From the IMG/VR virus record IMGVR_UViG_3300033141_002325, positions 1 through 46,238 of that record: DNA of 46,238 bases; one strand, 5' to 3'. The notes beneath the pieces are model-generated. The model was not told the DNA's origin. It saw only the letters and a program-made list of their open reading frames with translations, and searched no databases. Of the stretch, positions 2,486 to 38,050 are shown piece by piece. This DNA is from a virus. The position numbers and the translations under genes were made by a program. Every line of letters begins with the position of its first letter. Position 1 is the first letter of the stretch.

Positions 2486-3496
2486 ATGCTATGCCTTAAT
2501 TCGACAGGTGTAATAGAGGGCGGGGCCTCAGTTGATGCTGTTGTAGACTACCATCTCAGCGGGCTTGTAGGAACTACATTCACACAACTTGCAGCCGGAA
2601 CATTAAGTGATACCTTGACAGCGGCTTTATACACTGCTGGTGCTGCGGTTTCAATCGTCAACATTACTTTGGTTAATACCCATAGTGCAGCGGTGAATGT
2701 GACGCTGAGACTTGACCCTGCGAATGGAGGGAATCCTCGTTATATTATCCCTGAAACTATTTCTCTTGGAGCAGGATATTCGCTTCATACGGACGGAACT
2801 AAAATTGTAGTAATGGATGCGAGTGGAAGGATATTGAAGGGCTATGCCAATCATGCAGATGAACATAAGGTTGGTGGAGTTGATGATTTACTGACCTCCC
2901 CCACCCTCGTAACCCCTGCCCTCGGCACGCCTGCTTCAGGTGTGTTGACAAATTGTACGGGATTACCCACATCAGGTTTATCAACTCAAGCTTTTGCGGC
3001 AGGTATTGGTATAGGTGGAGCATCTGCGCAAACAGGAGGTGTCGCCTTCCCAGCCACAGCCGTACCAAGTGCTGACCCTAATACGTTGGATGATTATGAG
3101 GAGGGGACATGGACGCCGGTTCTTATAGGCAACACCACACCCGGAAATCCCACCTATAACTATCAGTATGGGGAATACGAAAAGATAGGCAGGCAGGTTA
3201 CTATCCGTGAGAGAGTGTTTCTTGCTGCAAAAGGAACAATAGCGGGCAATGTCCGGATTACAGGTTTACCATTTACATCGAGTTCGGCTGTCAGTGCCAA
3301 AATGTCATCAATTCATTTTGGTTATGTTACCAGTCTTACTATCTCAGCCGGTGAAAGTTTAGCAGGTTATATACCTCAAAATGTAGATTACATTAATGTA
3401 CAAATTTGGAACGCAACTGCTGGAACAACTGCGCTTGTGGATACCGAAATAACTGATGAAACATCATTTGCTTGTGCAGGAAGCTATAGGATATAA
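2486..3496 (+). CDS. Tail-fibre-like / receptor-binding-like protein
   Basis: 336 aa with ggag upstream of the ATG. The segments PTLVTPALGTPASGVLTNCTGLP and DDYEEGTWTP resemble motifs I recall from phage tail-fibre proteins. This is recollection and needs a search. Confidence 0.55.
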   Translation: MLCLNSTGVIEGGASVDAVVDYHLSGLVGTTFTQLAAGTLSDTLTAALYTAGAAVSIVNITLVNTHSAAVNVTLRLDPANGGNPRYIIPETISLGAGYSLHTDGTKIVVMDASGRILKGYANHADEHKVGGVDDLLTSPTLVTPALGTPASGVLTNCTGLPTSGLSTQAFAAGIGIGGASAQTGGVAFPATAVPSADPNTLDDYEEGTWTPVLIGNTTPGNPTYNYQYGEYEKIGRQVTIRERVFLAAKGTIAGNVRITGLPFTSSSAVSAKMSSIHFGYVTSLTISAGESLAGYIPQNVDYINVQIWNATAGTTALVDTEITDETSFACAGSYRI

Positions 3497-4266: not shown

Positions 4267-7200
4267 ATGCCTAATATAGTAGTAGGAAATCCAGAAAATG
4301 TTTATGCAGATTCTACAATATTAGATAAGGATCTAGGTTACGATTATCCTTATGGTCTCGACTTAAGGCCTGGTTCTAAGATCCATGATAAGATCAAGGC
4401 TGAGGTGATGACGAGGGCAAGAGAGAGTCATGCTCTTATTTCTAATCGAGTAGATTCGTGGAATCAGGTAGAGCGTGTAATGACAGCTTATGTTGATCTT
4501 TCTGAGAAAGAAGAAGACATTAAAAATAGTGATTCAAGAAAGCCTGTCTCAATAGTGTTTCCTTATACTTATGTCATTTTAGAGACAGTTCTTACTTATT
4601 TGATTACTGTGTTTCTCAATGATCCTATCTTTCGTTATAAAGGAAGCTCACCCGAAGATACTATCGGAACTATTATGCTTGAAAAGGTAGTTCAAAATCA
4701 AAGCAATTTCTTCAAAGTTGACTTGGCTCTTTATACATTTTTGCGTGACTCGTTAGTTTATGGAATTGGTGCTTGTGCCCCTGTGTGGAAAAAGAGAATG
4801 GGCATGAAGATCAGAGAAAGAAAGAGCGGATTGCTTGATTTCTTTAGAGGTCACGGAGAAAGGGTTTACGAAGAAGGAATTATCTATGAGGGTAACAAGC
4901 TCGAGAACATTGATCCTTATCTTTACTTACCTGATCCACGAGTTCCCTCACAAAAGATTCAAGAGGGTGAGTATGTAGGATGGATAGATAAAACCTCGAG
5001 AATGGCTTTACTTCGAGAGGAAAAGAATTCTGATGATATGTTTAATGCTAAGTACTTGAAAGCCATTATGATGAAGAGAAGTTCTATCTTTACGGCAGGT
5101 GAATCAGACAGAAATAAGAAAACTGGTATAAGTGACTATGCTTCTTATGACACAAGAATTCATAATCCCGTGGATGTCATCTATATGTATGTTGATCTTA
5201 TTCCAAAGGAATGGGAACTTGGGACGAGTGAGTATCCTGAAAAGTGGTTGTTTGGATTAGGGAATGATGGAATAGTTCTCAAGGCTAAGAAGCTTGGCCT
5301 AGCTCATGGGATGTATCCTATCGCAGTTGCATCTCCTGATTTTGATGGTTATTCAGTTCTTCCGCTGGCAAGAAGTGAGATGCTTTATGGAATGCAAACT
5401 GTTTTGGATTGGCTCTTTAACTGCTATGATGATCAAACAGAAGTTTTAACAGATACTGGATGGAAGCTTATTAAAGACGCTCAGATAGATAATAATAAGG
5501 TAGCGACAGTAGATCCTGAGTTATTAACTCTTACTTTTGAATATCCTAAAGAGTGGTTTGAGTATGATTATGAAGGGTATATGATGAACTTTAAGTCGTC
5601 TAATATTGATGTATGTGTTACTCCTAATCATAATATGTTTGTTAAAAGAAGATATGAGAGATCGGGAGTGTTTGACGAGTGGCAATTTAAACCAGCCGCT
5701 TTTTTAGGGGATACTGAATATAAGACTATTGGTAATGTTAATTGGAAAGGTAGTCAAGGTCAATCTGTTATTTTAGAAGGAGTAGCTCCTCTTAGAAATA
5801 GAGGAAAAAGACAAAGATACAAAGACGTAGAGATTCAATCTGATCTACTAGCTGGTTTTTTAGGATGGTTTTTAAGTGAAGGCTCAATAAGTCATGGGAA
5901 ATCTTCTGGTAGCTATGCAGTAGCTATAAAACAATCGAAAGGAGAAAACTATAAAGACCTTGATGCTATCTTTGATTCTATGCCTTTTCATGTTAATAGA
6001 ACTTATGACCTGAACAAATTTTCCTGTCAATGGACTATCACTGATAGACGTTTATACGACTGGCTGGAGAAAAACTGTTATGAGGGTGGTACAACAGGAG
6101 AATTTAAAAAAGTTCCTGGCTTTGTGAGAGACTGGGATGAATTTACTCTTAAGTTACTTTTTGATAGAGCTATGGCAGGCGATGGACATTGGATAGCTGG
6201 ACATTCTAATCTTGGTCAGTATGGTTCTAAGAGTAAACAGTTAGTAGATGATATGCAAGAAATAGCAATAAAATTAGGCTATTTCTCGCACATCCATGAA
6301 GGTAAAACACCTCTTGGAGATTCTTTTTATTCTCTAAATATTAATACTAGAAGTGTTTATCCTACGATTGCACCAAGAAATTGTTTTAAATCTAAATATA
6401 AGGGAAAGATCTATAGCTTTGAAAATTCTACGCATTTGACGGTGACACGTCGAGGAGGGAAAATAGCTGTTTGTGGGCAGTCTCATATAGCAAATGTCCG
6501 AAAGTCTATCAATGATATGCTAGTAGTTGATCCTTATCTTGTGAACATCGCAGACTTGAAAGATCCTGAGCCTGGAAAGCTGATAAGAATGAGACGTCCT
6601 GCTTGGGGAAAAGGAGTCAAAGACGCGGTACAGCAACTGATGGTCAACGATATCACAAGAGGAAACATTGGTGACTCTGCTATGATTGTTCAGTGGATGC
6701 AGAAGATAGGTGCGGCTGATGAGAGCATGATGGGAGCCTTGCGTCAGGGAGGTCCTGAACGTCTCACGGGTCAGGAATTTCAGGGGACAAGGGCAGGAGC
6801 TGTGGGAAGGTTGGAAAAGGTTGCAAAGGTTATAGGCTCGCAGGGAATGCGTGACATAGCTTATATGTTTGCCTCTCACAATCAACAGCTGATGTCGCAA
6901 GAAACTTACATTGATGTGGTAGGAACGTGGCAAAGTGAGTTGTCTGCTGTTTTTGGAGATGTTTCTAAGTTAAAGGTTACTCCTTGGGACTTACTAATCA
7001 ACTATGACGTGGTTGTTCAGGATGGGAGTACTCCAGGAAATTCGGATGCTAAGTCTTGGATTAGACTCTATGATGTTCTTTCCAAGAATCCTGAGTTAAG
7101 TAAGCAGTTTGATATGGTTAGAATTTTCGAACATATAGCTACTGAAATGGGAGCGAAGAATGTTCAAAACTTTAGAATCAATCCCAAAGTTGTTCCTGAC

Positions 7201-7275
7201 GAAGTTGCCATGCGGGAGCGAGAGAAGGGAAATATAGTTCCTATGGAAATGGGAGGAATGGGAGGTAGGATGTGA
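4267..7275 (+). CDS. Portal protein interrupted by an intein (extein about 649 aa)
   Basis: 1002-aa ORF upstream of the scaffold and capsid genes. Removing residues 386-738 joins ...TVLDWLFN to SHIANVRKSINDMLVVDP... The portal call rests on size and gene order only. Confidence 0.75.
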   Translation: MPNIVVGNPENVYADSTILDKDLGYDYPYGLDLRPGSKIHDKIKAEVMTRARESHALISNRVDSWNQVERVMTAYVDLSEKEEDIKNSDSRKPVSIVFPYTYVILETVLTYLITVFLNDPIFRYKGSSPEDTIGTIMLEKVVQNQSNFFKVDLALYTFLRDSLVYGIGACAPVWKKRMGMKIRERKSGLLDFFRGHGERVYEEGIIYEGNKLENIDPYLYLPDPRVPSQKIQEGEYVGWIDKTSRMALLREEKNSDDMFNAKYLKAIMMKRSSIFTAGESDRNKKTGISDYASYDTRIHNPVDVIYMYVDLIPKEWELGTSEYPEKWLFGLGNDGIVLKAKKLGLAHGMYPIAVASPDFDGYSVLPLARSEMLYGMQTVLDWLFNCYDDQTEVLTDTGWKLIKDAQIDNNKVATVDPELLTLTFEYPKEWFEYDYEGYMMNFKSSNIDVCVTPNHNMFVKRRYERSGVFDEWQFKPAAFLGDTEYKTIGNVNWKGSQGQSVILEGVAPLRNRGKRQRYKDVEIQSDLLAGFLGWFLSEGSISHGKSSGSYAVAIKQSKGENYKDLDAIFDSMPFHVNRTYDLNKFSCQWTITDRRLYDWLEKNCYEGGTTGEFKKVPGFVRDWDEFTLKLLFDRAMAGDGHWIAGHSNLGQYGSKSKQLVDDMQEIAIKLGYFSHIHEGKTPLGDSFYSLNINTRSVYPTIAPRNCFKSKYKGKIYSFENSTHLTVTRRGGKIAVCGQSHIANVRKSINDMLVVDPYLVNIADLKDPEPGKLIRMRRPAWGKGVKDAVQQLMVNDITRGNIGDSAMIVQWMQKIGAADESMMGALRQGGPERLTGQEFQGTRAGAVGRLEKVAKVIGSQGMRDIAYMFASHNQQLMSQETYIDVVGTWQSELSAVFGDVSKLKVTPWDLLINYDVVVQDGSTPGNSDAKSWIRLYDVLSKNPELSKQFDMVRIFEHIATEMGAKNVQNFRINPKVVPDEVAMREREKGNIVPMEMGGMGGRM
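5422..6480 (+). mobile_element. Intein with a LAGLIDADG homing-endonuclease domain (353 aa) inside the portal gene
   Basis: Block A is CYDDQTEVLTDTGWKLIKD (Cys1 at 5422-5424). Block B is VCVTPNHNMF. The two LAGLIDADG motifs are LAGFLGWFLSEGSI and LLFDRAMAGDGHW. Blocks F/G are KIYSFENSTHLTVTRRGGKIAVCGQ, followed by Ser +1 at 6481-6483. Confidence 0.85.
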
Positions 7276-27186: not shown

Positions 27187-27480
27187 CTAAATAGCATTTT
27201 CATCAAGCTTGTGATCTCCGCACCAGTCGGTTAGGAAGACAACAGGGTAACCATTCATAGTAGGAGCATGTCTTCTACATCTTCCTACAGTGGTTGGTAA
27301 TGGTGATATAGGAGAAGTCTTTTTAACGAACCATATACATGTTCTACATATCATATTTCTACTTCTATGTTCCCAAGGATCTTTCACAAAGTAACCTTTT
27401 GGATCTGAATCTGATTCTGGCCTCGAAATTGGCGCATCGAGTTCTTCTATTTTCCTAATTTTTTCATTCTCCATCTTCAT
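27187..27480 (-). CDS. Hypothetical Cys-containing small protein
   Basis: 97 aa with CRTCIWF..GRCRRHAP..DWCGDHK. It overlaps the polymerase 3' end by 17 nt. Confidence 0.6.
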   Translation of the reverse strand: MKMENEKIRKIEELDAPISRPESDSDPKGYFVKDPWEHRSRNMICRTCIWFVKKTSPISPLPTTVGRCRRHAPTMNGYPVVFLTDWCGDHKLDENAI

Positions 27481-29923
27481 TCTCCTTTATTTTATTGTAT
27501 CCTTCTTCTAATCTCAACGCAAGTAGTTGAGAAGACTCAGGAAACTTATTGTGTTTGAATTCTATTCCTTCTTCTTTATAAAGATTAAATCCCATTACTA
27601 AGTCAACAGGAATTACAAACTCTACCTCACCCCATTTCAAAGAAGTCTCAAGGGATTCCTTAATCCTCATTAACATATCAGCATGCTCAGACCAGGGGAT
27701 GCTAAGAGGTATTTGAAAACCTATTGAGTCATGCACTTGAATGAGAAGCTCCAAGGGCTCGAACCATTGCTGGTTTTGATAGATAAATGCCAAGCCTTGT
27801 TCGTCAATCTTATCTGCAATTGTAGACTGAGGAATTTGAGCATAAGCATCACGAAACAAATCATCTCCCCATTGCTGAAGAAAGAGTCTCTTACGACCAA
27901 AAAGGTTTGTGAGAGTTCTATCTTTTGCAAGCTGAGTTTTAACCATCTGATGAAAACTTCCTCTAACCTCAGGATAAATAGAATGATAACGATCAAGAAG
28001 CCACTTACTTTCATTCTCCATTATCTCAACTTGGAGAGCGAACTTCTTATATCCAAGATCGTAGTTAAAAGAGTGATTAGTTTTCTTTCCCCAAAATCTT
28101 TCTGAATGAGTACCATCACCAAGGGATGAGCTTCCATCTTCATCCGAGATTTCGTTGGGACTCTTGCCAAAAATTAAAGAAGCAGTTAAAGTATGAACAT
28201 CTGCTTCCTCTTCAAAGGCCTTTATCATGCGAGCTACCTTGCCTATATAAGCTACTATTCTATTCTCACCTTGAGACAGATCAAAAGAATAATAAATGTA
28301 TCCTTCATCAGCAAGCAGATATTTTAACAACTTATGAGGCCAGTTTTGCATATTCATTCCTGTACCAAAGATATTCTCGCTTGAAGAAAGTCTACCTGTC
28401 TTTGTTCCAACAGGGTTATAAGAACAGCGAATTCTCTTATCAGAATCTACTTTGTCTAGATTCATATAAGCAGAGGAAAGCTTACGCAAGGTTCTTATCT
28501 TTCCCACAATCGAGGCTTCCTTAACTCCCTTTCTACTAAGTCGCTTTAAGGCAGTTTCATCTGTTGTGATAGCTCCTTTTTTTCTGTAAGCCTTATGTCC
28601 AAGCTTCTCATAGAAATACCATTTGAGCTGATTAGGAGAGTTTGCATTAAGCTCCATTCCTGCAAGAGAGTTCAGCTCCTTTTGGAAACCTGTAAGCTGA
28701 CTTTCCATTTCCATTTTAGCACCAAGCATACCACTAGTGTTTACTCTTATTCCTCTATTCATCATATAAACAAGAGGTTCGACTATGCTTACTTGGCGTT
28801 CATAGGTAGGCAAATTGTCTTGATGTTTTAGATGTTTCAGCTGTTCAGGAAATGAAGCTGCACAAGATATACTATCCATTCCATTATAGTGCCAAAGAGT
28901 TTCCCACGCACCACCTACTTTGAACCATCTTTTTCCATCAGCTTTGTAATAAGGAATGTCAGTGTGAGTGGAGACTATGAAGTCTAAGCCCATTGGGTAG
29001 TCAGGAAACAAAATCTTCTGAGCAATCATAGTATCATGAATGTTGTGGACCTTGATTCCGAAGCGAGAGAGAAGAACAGTGGAGTCGAACGCTAGGTTCT
29101 GACCACGCTTTTTGATCTCAGAATCTTCAAGGATTAAGGCAATAGCCTTCCATATTGCAGCTTCCTGCTCAATTGTGAAGTAGTCTCCCCTTGAGTCGAT
29201 GAAAGGAATTGACATAGCATTATGAGGAGAGTGAGCGAAGCTGATACAGGAGACCTCGTTGTTGAAGACCTCGATGTCAAAATCTATAACAGCTCCGCTC
29301 TTGCCTTTCTCATGGCAGAGGTTGAGAAAGGCTAGTGAGTCATAGTAAGAAGGACCTATAGTTATGTTACGTCCTTCTGGACGAATCTCAGGAAAGGCTG
29401 CTTCTTTCATTGCCTTAATCAAATCAAAGATTATCAGACGCTTATTCAAGTAAACATTCTTTGGAGGAATGACAGTAGCAGGATGAATAATAGGGACTAC
29501 TTTCTTTCCTGGAATAAGAGTAGACTCAAGGACTGATCCTCGCCAGCTTGTAATTCCCATTCTACTTGTAAGAACATAAAGAGCTACATTGCCAATGGCT
29601 ATTATTACATTAGCAGAGCAATCAAGTAATTCATCCTTAAGTATTTGAACATACTCTCTGCCCTCATCAGAAAGACTCACACTTCCTCGACCAAACTTGA
29701 TGTATTGATCAAGAGGAAGGTCTAAGTCCTTAACCACGTTCGTGATGTAGCATTCGAACCTGGAGATCTTAGCCACGGTGAGACAGGAAGTAAGTTCTCT
29801 ACCTGCAGGCCCAGTGAAAGGCTTACGAGTGTAGATTTCTGATCTTCCAGGCTGTTCACCTACCAAAGCAATTGAGCAATTTTTTCTGTCTCCCTCAGGA
29901 GGAACAGCGGTTGCCTTCTTCAT
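27464..29923 (-). CDS. Family A DNA polymerase with 3'-5' exonuclease and an N-terminal UDG-like (family 4-like) domain
   Basis: 819 aa. UDG-like motifs: ALVGEQPGRSE, FTGPAGREL, IIHPAT. Exo I/II/III: DFDIEV, NLAFDS, YNGMDS. Pol motif A is SFDLSQGENRIVAY, motif B is RFWGKKTNHSFNYDLGY and motif C is LIQVHDSI. Confidence 0.88.
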   Translation of the reverse strand: MKKATAVPPEGDRKNCSIALVGEQPGRSEIYTRKPFTGPAGRELTSCLTVAKISRFECYITNVVKDLDLPLDQYIKFGRGSVSLSDEGREYVQILKDELLDCSANVIIAIGNVALYVLTSRMGITSWRGSVLESTLIPGKKVVPIIHPATVIPPKNVYLNKRLIIFDLIKAMKEAAFPEIRPEGRNITIGPSYYDSLAFLNLCHEKGKSGAVIDFDIEVFNNEVSCISFAHSPHNAMSIPFIDSRGDYFTIEQEAAIWKAIALILEDSEIKKRGQNLAFDSTVLLSRFGIKVHNIHDTMIAQKILFPDYPMGLDFIVSTHTDIPYYKADGKRWFKVGGAWETLWHYNGMDSISCAASFPEQLKHLKHQDNLPTYERQVSIVEPLVYMMNRGIRVNTSGMLGAKMEMESQLTGFQKELNSLAGMELNANSPNQLKWYFYEKLGHKAYRKKGAITTDETALKRLSRKGVKEASIVGKIRTLRKLSSAYMNLDKVDSDKRIRCSYNPVGTKTGRLSSSENIFGTGMNMQNWPHKLLKYLLADEGYIYYSFDLSQGENRIVAYIGKVARMIKAFEEEADVHTLTASLIFGKSPNEISDEDGSSSLGDGTHSERFWGKKTNHSFNYDLGYKKFALQVEIMENESKWLLDRYHSIYPEVRGSFHQMVKTQLAKDRTLTNLFGRKRLFLQQWGDDLFRDAYAQIPQSTIADKIDEQGLAFIYQNQQWFEPLELLIQVHDSIGFQIPLSIPWSEHADMLMRIKESLETSLKWGEVEFVIPVDLVMGFNLYKEEGIEFKHNKFPESSQLLALRLEEGYNKIKENEDGE

Positions 29924-31180: not shown

Positions 31181-32506
31181 TTAGCCTCCTCTCATCTCTT
31201 CCAACATAATCCTTGATACATAACCTTCCTTGTACTCAGAAGAAAGATCATAGCCAATCGGAAACATTTTCTTATTGTAAGCAGCAACAAGAGTGTTTCC
31301 ACTTCCTGCGAAAGGAACAAGAACTCTTGAGCCTTCCCAGGCAAACACGTTAAGAAGTTCTTCTATCAACTCAACTGGACGCTCAGTAGGATGAATCTTT
31401 TGAGCAGGAAAAACAGGAGGAAAGTTAAACACGTTCGATCTTCCACGTTTATCCAAGTTGATCTTTGCATCACCTTTCTTTGCATAAAAGAACATTTCAT
31501 AACTACTTGCAAGATAAATATCTGGATGCTTAGTTTGTCCAGAAGGCTTAGTCCAGATTCCACAGAGCCTACGAGTTTGAAAGCCTGCTTCTTTAATCAT
31601 GTGATACATAGGATCAAACCACGGCTCAGGACCGAACCAGACTATTATCCAAGAGTTATCACTCATTACTCGATAGCATTCCCTCAACACGTTCTGCATG
31701 AACTCGAGGTACTGACTACTTGCGACCTCATTATAAGAATCGCCATAGATAATTGAGTAGTTATCTTTGGCTTTCTGTTGAGGCAGGTCAATAGCATAAG
31801 GTGGGTCGAGCTCTACCAACTCAATGCTTTTGTTAGGAACCTTTGTAATCTTGTCGAAGAAATCTCCTACAATATAAGCCTCAGTTTTCTTCTTTGCTGT
31901 CTTACTTAAGAGCTTAGTTGCTTTGTCGGATAGCTCCTTGCGAACAATTCTTTCCTCAAGTTTGTTAAGCATCTTTACAGCATCACTCTTATTCTTGCAC
32001 TTATCCCAATGAAGATCAGGAAATCCCTCGACAGCATCTGCTAGCTTAATGTCCATGCTTACAGTTTTGTGATCTCGACCAATAAGATCTGCTGTGTCTC
32101 TCATGCTCCAACCAGAAGCATCGGGAGATGTGGAGACCTTAGCTCCGTGAATTGCAAGCTGGAGCCTGTGAATCTCACGTTTGAGATTGCAATCTTCAAT
32201 AAAGTCTAAATCCTTACGCTGAATGTTTTCCTCAAGCTCAATAGAACGCATATCAAGATCACTAAGAGCTTTGGTATAAATTCTTACAGGAATTTCTTCT
32301 ATTTCTGCAAGTCTTGCTGCATCAAATCTCCTCCCTCCTGCAAGCAAGATGTAAGGTTTCTCTGGATCATTCTGCTTTGCAACTGCTAAAGGTTGAATAA
32401 TTCCATACTTTTTCATAGACTTAATAAGTCCTTCTAAGTCTCCATAGTCCCTTCTGAATCTACTTTTGCACAAAATATCATTCGCAGATACAATCTTTAC
32501 TAACAT
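31181..32506 (-). CDS. ParB-like nuclease domain fused to a beta-class N6-adenine/N4-cytosine DNA methyltransferase
   Basis: ParB box LLAGGRRFDAARLA. Motif IV VELDPPY precedes motif I VLVPFAGSGNT, which is the beta-class order. ATG 32506 lies after gagaggag; the track start at 32521 is TTG. Confidence 0.8.
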   Translation of the reverse strand: MLVKIVSANDILCKSRFRRDYGDLEGLIKSMKKYGIIQPLAVAKQNDPEKPYILLAGGRRFDAARLAEIEEIPVRIYTKALSDLDMRSIELEENIQRKDLDFIEDCNLKREIHRLQLAIHGAKVSTSPDASGWSMRDTADLIGRDHKTVSMDIKLADAVEGFPDLHWDKCKNKSDAVKMLNKLEERIVRKELSDKATKLLSKTAKKKTEAYIVGDFFDKITKVPNKSIELVELDPPYAIDLPQQKAKDNYSIIYGDSYNEVASSQYLEFMQNVLRECYRVMSDNSWIIVWFGPEPWFDPMYHMIKEAGFQTRRLCGIWTKPSGQTKHPDIYLASSYEMFFYAKKGDAKINLDKRGRSNVFNFPPVFPAQKIHPTERPVELIEELLNVFAWEGSRVLVPFAGSGNTLVAAYNKKMFPIGYDLSSEYKEGYVSRIMLEEMRGG

Positions 32507-32507
32507 A

Positions 32508-32720
32508 TTAACTCCTCTCAAGCATTTTTATTAAGTCTTCTCTCTCAGTTGAAGATAGTTTGGAAACCAAACTGTCCATACTGACTTTCGAAGCCTTTTT
32601 CACCTTATTCTTTTTCTCGACAGGAGTTCTTCTGTACTTGCGGATGCTTCTTATTCGTTCAAAGAGAACATCATCTAACATTTCGGAGACAGAAGTAGCT
32701 AAGTTATTAATCGTTGCCAT
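32508..32720 (-). CDS. Hypothetical protein
   Basis: 70-aa ORF that overlaps both neighbours by a few nt (operon packing). Confidence 0.55.
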   Translation of the reverse strand: MATINNLATSVSEMLDDVLFERIRSIRKYRRTPVEKKNKVKKASKVSMDSLVSKLSSTEREDLIKMLERS

Positions 32721-37561: not shown

Positions 37562-37768
37562 TCAAATTTCTTCTATATTGTAAGAACCTTTATCTGCCAA
37601 CATATAGGCATAATCATTTGCCCACTTTCTTGCACTTATTGATGTAGTATAATCTATTCCTAATGTTTCATTCAATACTCGAGCCGATGGAGTATCTTCA
37701 AATGTTTTTATTACTACCTTTGTTTCCTCCGTTTCTGGATCTACATATTCTATTTTAAATTTAGGCAT
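37562..37768 (-). CDS. Hypothetical protein
   Basis: The track ORF extends to 37837, into the tRNA-like gene. ATG 37768 (MPKFKIEYVDP...) follows agaggttagaa. 68 aa. Confidence 0.55.
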   Translation of the reverse strand: MPKFKIEYVDPETEETKVVIKTFEDTPSARVLNETLGIDYTTSISARKWANDYAYMLADKGSYNIEEI

Positions 37769-37788: not shown

Positions 37789-37955
37789 TGAGGAAGACAG
37801 GATTCGAACCTGCACCTTGGTGCATCAAGGGGAACATTATTAAGATTCAGTTGCACACCTATCTTCAGTTAATTAACTTGAGGTTCAAGTTCAAGATTAA
37901 CTAATGTTGCGTCTACCAATGGCAAACAGAAACTTGCCAATTCCGCCACTTCCTC
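37789..37955 (-). tRNA. Leu-type class II tRNA-like gene interrupted by a 21-nt D-loop insertion and a 57-nt anticodon-loop insertion (possible pseudogene or unusual precursor)
   Basis: The minus strand has acceptor GAGGAAG/CTTCCTC (7 bp), D-arm GCGGAATTGG..TAGACGC, a long variable arm CCTTG-ATGCAC-CAAGG and T-arm GCAGG-TTCGAAT-CCTGT with discriminator A. Total length is 167 nt against about 87 nt expected. Confidence 0.6.
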
Positions 37956-37984: not shown

Positions 37985-38021
37985 ATAAAAAAGATGAGGG
38001 GAGCGGCATAACTCCCCTCAC
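37985..38021 (-). terminator. Rho-independent terminator of the 38051..38398 unit
   Basis: The minus strand has a 9-bp stem TGAGGGGAG/CTCCCCTCA (38012-38020 / 37995-38003) and an 8-nt loop, followed by TCTTTTTTAT (37985-37994). Confidence 0.8.
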
Positions 38022-38050
38022 CAAACGAAGGAGGGATACTTCGAGAAAGA

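Follow-up and report, generated by a model that had tools for sequence, protein, structure and literature searches.

A tRNA-Leu-type frame with an added D-loop helix and a replaced anticodon loop in an uncultured phage: a probable non-decoding RNA of an apparently undescribed viral family

Mimicry of transfer RNA (tRNA) by noncoding RNAs is known from transfer-messenger RNA (tmRNA), Y RNAs, viral tRNA-like structures, t-elements and the stable RNAs of phage T4. Here we analyse a tRNA-like element in a viral genome of IMG/VR (record IMGVR_UViG_3300033141_002325, positions 1 to 46,238; this whole stretch of 46,238 nucleotides (nt) is called the window). On its minus strand a tRNA-Leu-type frame of 167 nt (37955-37789) is broken by 21 nt in the D-loop and by about 57 nt at the position of the anticodon loop. 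The original prediction, which was made from the sequence alone, had left open whether this is a decaying tRNA, a precursor needing an undescribed processing route or a tRNA-like structured RNA. Our analysis favours the last of these options and neither of the other two. We consider it likely that the locus encodes a non-decoding, tRNA-shaped small RNA which has a phage tRNA-Leu(UAA) as its ancestor and is one of a large viral and metagenomic family; that this RNA is excised and stable we infer from structure and genetic context.

The tRNA array of phage T4 contains two small stable RNAs of unknown function, the species 1 and 2 RNAs (rnaC and rnaD; PMC9697503). They resemble the family members of large phages in that they are phage-encoded and lie in a tRNA array on the same strand, while the window copy, unlike rnaC and rnaD, lies outside any tRNA array. 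In rnaC a canonical T-arm and a closing stem surround a large non-tRNA interior, which follows the same logic as the family members of large phages. However, rnaC lacks both a Leu-type D-arm and a D-loop helix, and with 20.9 bits in the family model it falls within the ordinary tRNAs (17-27 bits) and below the members (34-48 bits). By this comparison of sequences, rnaC is an analogue and not a member of the family. The t-elements of plant mitochondria are likewise tRNA-like, keep the T-arm and the acceptor stem and lie beside coding regions, where cleavage by RNase P and RNase Z makes mRNA ends (PMC1920247). The window element is similar in lying 22 nt upstream of an open reading frame (ORF), but t-elements are degenerate tRNA remnants without an added conserved helix, and the window element belongs to a phage of a presumably bacterial host.

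YrlA Y RNAs are tRNA mimics bound by Ro60/Rsr, some of them phage-encoded, which retain both D-arm and T-arm along with tertiary pairs such as the Levitt pair 15:48 and which tRNA enzymes recognise (PMC4201824). Their order is permuted (T arm, capped acceptor stem-loop, D arm), the termini form the Ro60-binding stem, and the Ro60 gene lies within about 4 kb (PMC4201824). The window element differs by its normal tRNA order, and no TROVE domain was found among the window ORFs scanned; membership in YrlA was ruled out by the arm order together with the absence of a YrlA match in Rfam. With tmRNA the element shares a tRNA-like acceptor/T-arm domain, a large non-tRNA interior and, putatively, an identity system that is independent of the anticodon. 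It differs from tmRNA in having a full D-stem and neither G3:U70 nor a tag reading frame nor a series of pseudoknots; tmRNA was rejected because ARAGORN with option -m was negative, Rfam gave no tmRNA match and pair 3:70 is G-C. Extra sequence in the D-loop or the anticodon loop is also known from intron-containing tRNAs, namely archaeal ones with bulge-helix-bulge (BHB) motifs, including D-loop introns, and cyanobacterial tRNA-Leu(UAA) with a group I intron. In contrast to these, the element has no BHB, its segments are too short for group I introns, its host is presumably bacterial and its "exons" do not form a canonical anticodon loop. A 2023 survey of phage structured RNAs lists candidates of a generic tRNA-like type (Tyr, Asp, Cys, Arg), none of which resembles this family. 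We found no match to an architecture of D-loop helix plus lost anticodon loop in Rfam 15 or in the literature, and the family is apparently undescribed.

All motifs and stems listed in the original prediction are present at the positions given there, and no CCA is encoded. Read on the minus strand, the element has the layout GAGGAAG-UG-GCGG-AAU-[UGGCAAGU-UUCU-GUUUGCCA]-UUGGUAG-ACGC-A-ACAUU-[64 nt]-AAUGU-UCC-CCUUG-AUGCAC-CAAGG-U-GCAGG-UUCGAAU-CCUGU-CUUCCUC-A (Table 1). It contains every core feature of a tRNA that was looked for (U8, A14, G18G19, the 15:48 pair, the T-loop, acceptor stem, D-arm and T-arm). What it does not contain is an anticodon stem of five base pairs (bp) with a 7-nt loop carrying U33 and a purine at 37; the stem at this position encloses 64 nt. 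A fold constrained to the tRNA-like shape has -45.2 kcal/mol compared to -47.9 kcal/mol for the minimum free energy (MFE) fold, so that the tRNA shape costs 2.7 kcal/mol. The Rfam tRNA model (RF00005) gives 30.3 bits with a gathering cut-off of 29, skipping inserts of 24 and 90 nt, and by this sequence model the tRNA resemblance of the element is above chance.

Table 1. Position of the element's parts and of neighbouring features in the window
Feature	Position	Strand	Remarks
Closing (acceptor) stem, 5' strand GAGGAAG	37949..37955	-	pairs with 37796-37790
U8-G9 and D-stem 5' strand GCGG	37943..37948	-	UGGCGG invariant in alignment A1
P2a, extra D-loop helix (UGGCAAGU-UUCU-GUUUGCCA), "insertion 1"	37920..37939	-	smallest in the family; same site in all relatives
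3' part of D-loop UUGGUAG (holds G18-G19) and D-stem 3' strand ACGC	37909..37919	-	UUGGUAGACGC conserved in the family
Stem at anticodon-stem position, 5' strand ACAUU	37903..37907	-	pairs with 37838-37834; kept in the constrained fold
64-nt lineage-specific module replacing the anticodon loop, contains "insertion 2"	37839..37902	-	two hairpins, 36 nt and 24 nt; vestigial CUUAAU
Stem at anticodon-stem position, 3' strand AAUGU	37834..37838	-	pairs with 37907-37903
Variable-arm hairpin CCUUG-AUGCAC-CAAGG (class II tRNA feature)	37815..37830	-	
U48, partner of A15 in Levitt tertiary pair	37814	-	U in 31/31 parsed members
T-arm GCAGG-UUCGAAU-CCUGU	37797..37813	-	canonical T-loop; 4/5 T-stem pairs covary in the family
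Closing stem, 3' strand CUUCCUC, and A73	37789..37796	-	ACA next, so CCA is not encoded
Intrinsic terminator-like hairpin of the upstream gene	37993..38022	-	12-bp stem with 7 G-C pairs, T-run; conserved in L004
68-aa ORF, start codon 22 nt after the element	37565..37768	-	no family match; tied to the element by co-deletion in L004 only

In total at least 65 distinct relatives were recovered, all of them from viral or metagenomic contigs and all sharing the tRNA frame (fetched loci carry L-numbers such as L002, L004 or L009). The first four (L009, L018, L032, L040) were fetched by way of the neighbouring ligase gene, that is independently of the element sequence, and they share the Leu-type D-arm, the T-arm and the closing stem, with very different interiors. 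Further relatives were obtained with junction motifs and with pattern scans using two anchors, and a last scan, anchored on the flanking D-arm bases only, added 36 loci that form an unbiased set for the D-loop helix. The conservation of UUGGUAGACGC is partly imposed by the search patterns, while the covariation of the helix, U48 and the covariation of closing stem and T-stem rest on positions which the searches left free. The members come from podovirus-like genomes of 40 kb up to contigs of 180 kb, and the architecture is kept across phages with about 50% identical proteins as well as in unrelated large phages.

A 17-mer junction sequence of the family has 33 matches in 185,579 bacterial and archaeal genomes, none of them in a tRNA-like context, compared to nine tRNA-like cases among 12 matches in viral contigs. 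As far as this one 17-mer shows, the family seems to be restricted to viruses, and divergent cellular copies are possible. An exact 28-mer from the 3' half of the element has no match in viral contigs, and blastn detects no DNA similarity to cultured phages. A covariance model (R1) ranked the window element first of 60 sources with 37.5 bits; members scored 34-48 bits in another search with this model, which handles long inserts poorly, truncates its matches and was used for ranking only. The window element has all the features that define the family: a helix between U16 and U17, the Leu-type D-arm, A15:U48, the T-arm, the closing stem and a non-canonical interior.

The D-loop segment forms the helix which we call P2a. 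It lies at the same site and is helical in every member, and in nearly all of the 33 distinct cases of the unbiased set it is bounded by a pairing of 7-10 bp. The sequences of these helices are unrelated (e.g. TGGCAAG/CTTGCCA, GTTAACA/TGTTAAC, ATCAATC/GATTGAT, TGATGGC/GCCGTCA, GGCTACT/AGTAGTT and GTTATGAGG/CCTCATAAC). For 29 sequences of this set the 7-bp base of the helix shows a covariation of 0.862 versus 0.223 in shuffled controls, of which none out of 500 was as high, and the value falls to 0.225 or less when the partners are slid against each other; pairs one to seven each occur as four to six pair types. Distally, the helix carries no more than a tetraloop in the window, which is the minimal case, and up to 73 nt in the relatives, and in L009 the insert has the same site and the same closing stem at a length of 54 nt.

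Several further observations concern the modules. In L075 (5199-5378) the distal part of the D-loop helix holds a T-arm-like hairpin (AGGG-UUCAAUU-CCCU) and in L018 (8222-8440) a D-arm-like sequence (GUAGCUCAGAGGU); family-wide, T-loop and GNRA hairpins in the modules are not enriched over shuffles. Four members (L065, L129, L189, L209) carry a third module of 24-27 nt between the T-arm and the 3' acceptor strand, consisting of a 4-bp stem with a GAAA or GUAA cap and covarying stem sequences (CACC/GGUG, UUCA/UGGA, CUCA/UGAG), followed by a UGGCG...CGCCA hairpin that repeats the D-arm sequence UGGCGGAAU.

The helix also accounts for one of the two direct repeats by which the original prediction had delimited its insertions. 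ATTGG is indeed found at 37941-37937 and 37920-37916, on either side of the 21-nt segment 37936-37916, and this segment contains the hairpin GGCAA-N8-TTGCC. The first copy, however, is A15-U16 plus the UGG of the 5' strand, and the second is the last helix base A plus the normal U17-U-G18-G19. Because the repeat is lost where the helix has another sequence (such as GTTAACA/TGTTAAC or ATCAATC/GATTGAT), it is a by-product of the covarying helix UGGCAAG/CUUGCCA and the D-loop consensus UUGG. The second repeat, TTAAT, occurs not only at 37900-37896 and 37843-37839 but a third time at 37876-37872, all within an AT-rich palindromic module, and it is conserved in no relative. For the inserted sequences no second copy and no antisense target could be found in the window, the longest match of 11 nt being the mode of shuffled controls. 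A transposon-like insertion with target-site duplication (a miniature inverted-repeat transposable element or an insertion sequence) was rejected, since ATTGG is explained by the helix and the window holds no further copy; so was a repeated mobile insert or a guide or antisense role against the phage's own genome, with the longest match as in shuffles. A sigma-54 promoter (TGGCA...TTGC in the D-loop segment) was discarded by inspection, because the spacing is wrong (N13 where N10 would be needed) and across the family takes values between 6 and 73 nt.

With regard to the frame, an alignment of the spliced scaffold of 36 members (A1) has double-sided changes in all nine closing-stem pairs and in four of the five T-stem pairs. 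In this alignment 94% of the cells are paired and the covariation is 0.493 compared to 0.150 in shuffles (0 of 500 as high). The base 5' of the T-stem, which no search had required, is U in all 31 parsed members (background U 0.26) and, by eye, in 23 out of 24 of the second, unbiased set; with A15 invariant, this base is assigned as U48 of an A15:U48 Levitt pair. As read from the alignments, selection acting on the RNA preserves the tRNA frame. Pairing of -1 with 73, giving a closing stem of 8 bp, was considered as a diagnostic feature and dropped, as it occurs in 34 of 36 members but also in 16 of 18 ordinary tRNA genes of L129.

These results bear on the proposal that the locus is a decaying, functionless tRNA pseudogene with random insertions. 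Its patchy distribution would fit, as would the variants L068, L093 and L128, in which the 5' module alone is retained, a deletion remnant in the closest relative, L004, and the fact that close relatives do without the element. In L093 and L128 this module, GCGGAAUUGGCAAG...CUUGCCAAUUYCGC, is one continuous long hairpin without a T-arm, directly upstream of a Shine-Dalgarno (SD) sequence and a start codon. A pseudogene would not maintain three helices with compensatory changes and an invariant U48; moreover, its insertions would not be expected as a helix at one and the same site in every member, nor would its architecture persist over such distances between phages. We regard decay as the least probable of the alternatives weighed here, with very little in favour of it overall.

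The conserved positions could also suit a tmRNA-like logic without decoding. A14, A15:U48, the G18G19 context and, in the window, A73 are what we take to be the identity set of the E. coli leucyl-tRNA synthetase (LeuRS). Since LeuRS ignores the anticodon, the frame could be aminoacylated and deliver leucine or enter ribosomes, and some members encode A-CCA. Position 73, however, is not conserved (C 16, A 14, U 4, G 2), CCA is encoded by a minority of the family, and in L129 the tRNA-like element lacks it although 16 of the 18 ordinary tRNAs of the same phage encode it. In addition, P2a sits in a region of the D-loop whose geometry matters for LeuRS, and ARAGORN -m shows neither a tag-like ORF nor tmRNA features. 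We consider a charged RNA of this kind very unlikely.

The second segment shares a position but no sequence with its counterparts. Between D-arm and T-arm the family members have 34-186 nt without sequence similarity and without a conserved loop, and the segments enclosed at the anticodon position in the relatives are unrelated and measure 3-171 nt. For the 64-nt module of the window, whose 36-nt hairpin spans 37902-37867 and which has a folding z-score of -2.1, the 218 loci fetched contain no homologue. Among 31 relatives, 19 have an MFE fold of the central region in which a helix closes no more than 3 nt from the T-stem. A tetraloop occupies the anticodon position of L133, L239 has a single tetraloop hairpin, and in L135 both the anticodon arm and the variable arm are missing; judged from these sequences, the three are plainly unable to decode.

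The tRNA finders give a corresponding picture. In its default mode ARAGORN calls no tRNA on the native element and none elsewhere in the window. When both segments are deleted as the original prediction had proposed, the program reports tRNA-Stop(UUA), and when the D-loop segment alone is deleted and the intron mode is used, tRNA-Leu(UAA) with a 59-nt intron, the stem AACAU/AUGUU and the loop CUUAAUA. A class II tRNA accepted by ARAGORN can thus be obtained, either as Leu-UAA or as Stop-UUA depending on the register, and the product aligns with a canonical phage tRNA-Leu(UAA). This would agree with a functional tRNA-Leu(UAA) or UUA ochre suppressor of about 87 nt from which two short introns are removed by an undescribed bacterial or phage excision and ligation, and so would the six Leu anticodons among 19 intron-mode calls, where about two are expected by chance. 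Against it, both registers are non-canonical (G33 with UUA; U37 and no nucleotide 26 with UAA), and the UUA "anticodon" is not conserved in the family. After in-silico removal of the D-loop helix an ordinary tRNA is found in 0 of 32 members of one set and in at most 1 of 33 of the other (a dubious Asn-AUU), while the intron-mode calls name 11 different isotypes and place the intron anywhere between positions 27 and 42. The anticodon regions are unrelated, many members cannot form an anticodon arm at all, and phages with the element already have ordinary tRNA-Leu genes. An observation of its own is L251, where ARAGORN calls a tRNA with the anticodon UUA at 7095-7166, a possible ochre suppressor, on a contig that also carries a tRNA-like element.

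Nor could any known splicing signal be found. An exhaustive search for BHB motifs, which the archaeal-type introns considered in the original prediction would call for, found none at either border of the two segments and four generic motifs overall, compared to 7.0 +/- 2.9 in shuffles. A group I intron was rejected because segments of 21 and 57-59 nt cannot hold the P1-P9 core of more than 200 nt between U34 and A35 and Rfam gives no intron match; group II introns are too long as well. With gathering and with permissive thresholds, Rfam finds nothing but tRNA in the window copy and no intron or ribozyme in 17 loci with larger relatives. A splicing endonuclease or an RNA ligase was not detected among the window ORFs scanned. 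We therefore consider an interrupted but functional tRNA as quite unlikely. Since frame and helix are conserved across the family, both "insertions" are better described as built-in parts of the RNA, neither introns nor transposon footprints, and since the anticodon loop is replaced by variable hairpins, the element should be unable to read codons. In the sequences at hand the tRNA frame is kept, a D-loop helix is added and structured modules take the place of the anticodon loop.

The Leu-type ancestry seen in the original prediction holds. Without both modules the window element aligns with the canonical-looking phage tRNA-Leu(UAA) of L018 (8762-8831, cut by the end of the locus), which has the loop CUUAAAA and the same GCGG/ACGC D-stem; the segment from U8-G9 through the 5' strand of the D-stem is identical in both. 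The expanded element of L018, 219 nt long, lies about 320 nt upstream of this tRNA gene, and this neighbourhood suggests that duplicated phage tRNA-Leu(UAA) genes gave rise to the family. The CUUAAU next to the 3' stem strand in the window, which is not conserved in the relatives, is best read as a vestige of a tRNA-Leu(UAA) loop.

The window represents a tailed phage of about 46 kb with SU10-like portal and adaptor proteins and with replication genes for a family-A DNA polymerase having an N-terminal domain like uracil-DNA glycosylase (UDG), a DUF3987 primase/helicase, an ATP-dependent DNA ligase, a PD-(D/E)XK nuclease and a dCMP deaminase. Its nearest cultured relative, with about 50% amino-acid identity, is the Desulfofustis phage LS06-2018-MD01, whose host is the bacterium Desulfofustis. 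The element is intergenic, on the coding strand, within the replication/recombination module. The terminator of the upstream gene ends 37 nt before it, and none follows it. In smaller phages, the window included, single copies lie between genes of the replication module without a fixed neighbour. In the leaders of the members, positions -8 to -2 are rich in A and U and position -1 is G or U, as in pre-tRNAs. A conserved small ORF, starting from an ATG that often precedes the element, was dismissed by inspection, as frames and stops vary among the members.

This arrangement raises the question of whether the element acts in cis, as a tRNA-shaped 5' untranslated region that controls translation or stability of the downstream gene without release of a separate RNA. 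An SD sequence and a start codon follow on the same strand within 60 nt in 22 of 38 members (median distance 26.5 nt), the element ending 15-40 nt ahead of them, the window has its terminator before and not after the element, and in L004 the downstream 68-aa ORF was lost along with it. The downstream genes, however, are not homologous between loci, and the neighbours in large phages are tRNA genes instead of ORFs. By eye no complementarity to the downstream ribosome-binding site was seen, a formal search not having been made. Cis-control as the sole role is, in our estimate, unlikely, though it has more in its favour than the other alternatives.

In the large phages the elements lie within tRNA arrays on the same strand, in genomes that have ordinary tRNA-Leu genes too. 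They are placed, for example, between tRNA-Ala and tRNA-Asp (L233, L245), after tRNA-Pro (L220) or between tRNA-Gly and tRNA-Arg (L254). A single genome can hold several paralogues that have a common frame (acceptor AGUCAGG/CCUGACU, T-arm ACAGG...CCUGU) and differ in their interiors. The arrays of six loci on contigs of 59-98 kb (L220, L226, L233, L238, L239, L254) hold extra tRNA-like genes of 69-128 nt that are missed by ARAGORN, all with the AGUCAGG/CCUGACU acceptor and unrelated interiors. The constant acceptor across paralogues and genomes hints at recognition by a specific factor, as far as sequences can indicate this.

Other tRNA-like genes were noted in the fetched loci. L032 has two in tandem (4480-4553 and 4556-4713): the first is a mini element of 71 nt without an anticodon arm (GAGGGCAG-UG-GCAG...CAGG-UUCAAUC-CCUG-CUGCCCUC), the second a Leu-type element of 153 nt with encoded A-CCA and without the D-loop helix. 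ARAGORN reports tmRNA-like genes with tag peptides in L226 (2090-2486) and L235 (1762-2255), on contigs that also carry tRNA-like elements. L051 (about 3190-3297) contains a tRNA-Pro(UGG)-like gene with one acceptor mismatch and an apparent 6-nt duplication (UA-UCAA-UA) between acceptor stem and D-stem, which is not called by ARAGORN.

Three other genes of the window deserve mention. The SU10-type portal (4267-7275, plus strand) has 1002 aa, with a match to a LAGLIDADG-like domain at residues 650-695 and PHROG matches to thymidylate synthase and ribonucleotide reductase families at residues 376-477. These two families are frequent carriers of inteins, and, as these matches suggest, an intein that includes a homing-endonuclease domain is probably present in the portal. 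On the minus strand, 31181-32521 encodes a 446-aa fusion of a ParB-N domain with an N6/N4 DNA methylase, and 27464-29923 the 819-aa family-A DNA polymerase fused to its N-terminal UDG-superfamily domain.

Several points weigh against a functional, non-decoding RNA and have to be set beside the evidence given above. The window copy is the most tRNA-like member and the only one among those tested that exceeds the Rfam threshold, and because of its vestigial CUUAAUA loop a residual decoding after some processing step retains a small probability for this copy. Since many of the members were collected by means of patterns taken from the element itself, the D-arm looks more conserved than it is. Among the window ORFs scanned there was no enzyme that binds or processes RNA (RNA ligase, splicing endonuclease, CCA-adding enzyme, Ro60), and clustering of 618 flanking ORFs gave no conserved partner protein nearby; the clusters comprise genes of the replication module, whose distances vary, and an uncharacterised protein of 130-143 aa that lies directly upstream in seven loci. 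Finally, the element is dispensable. In L004, the closest relative of the window (94% identity in the upstream protein), an internal deletion has fused the 5' acceptor strand and UGGC to the T-loop's end with the 3' strand behind it, and the 68-aa ORF is also gone; no element is present at this position in L002 or in the Desulfofustis phage. An uninterrupted orthologue, for which the original prediction had suggested looking in relatives, was thus not found in these three.

For the tRNA-shaped, non-decoding RNA that we favour, the following course can be proposed. The RNA would be transcribed together with its neighbours, that is in the tRNA arrays of large phages and at the head of the ligase/recombination operon in the window phage. 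Because acceptor, T-arm and elbow are kept and many members are placed in tRNA arrays, the RNAs are presumably substrates of RNase P and of 3'-processing enzymes, and the preserved frame would let these host enzymes excise them. Excision would yield a stable RNA and, as a side effect, set the 5' end of the downstream mRNA. As a best guess, a tRNA-recognising factor of host or phage would be engaged or titrated by the frame, with specificity coming from the variable modules. Candidate roles are that of a decoy or titrator of such a factor, leucylation for a non-decoding purpose, or cis-control of the downstream gene. More tentatively, and with rather less confidence than in the reading of the locus itself, the family might represent a new class of noncoding RNA, in which a constant tRNA-Leu-shaped chassis carries interchangeable payloads at the D-loop helix, the anticodon position and the T-arm/acceptor junction, is matured by host tRNA enzymes and acts on a tRNA-recognising factor. 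Such a chassis could possibly inhibit LeuRS, RNase P or a defence nuclease that targets tRNAs, or act as a decoy for one of them, or else it could serve as a leucine-charged non-decoding RNA.

What is new compared to the known tRNA mimics is the covarying D-loop helix on an otherwise intact tRNA core, together with an anticodon loop that is systematically lost. Among uncultured phages the family is widespread, often present in several copies in tRNA arrays, and is missed by standard tRNA finders; if its products are stable, this would be a sizeable blind spot in phage annotation. A borderline tRNA match with "insertions" in a phage genome should not be annotated as an intron-containing or suppressor tRNA. 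The family may also inform on the species 1 and 2 RNAs of T4, and it could give a handle on how phages manipulate the tRNA-recognising machinery of their hosts.

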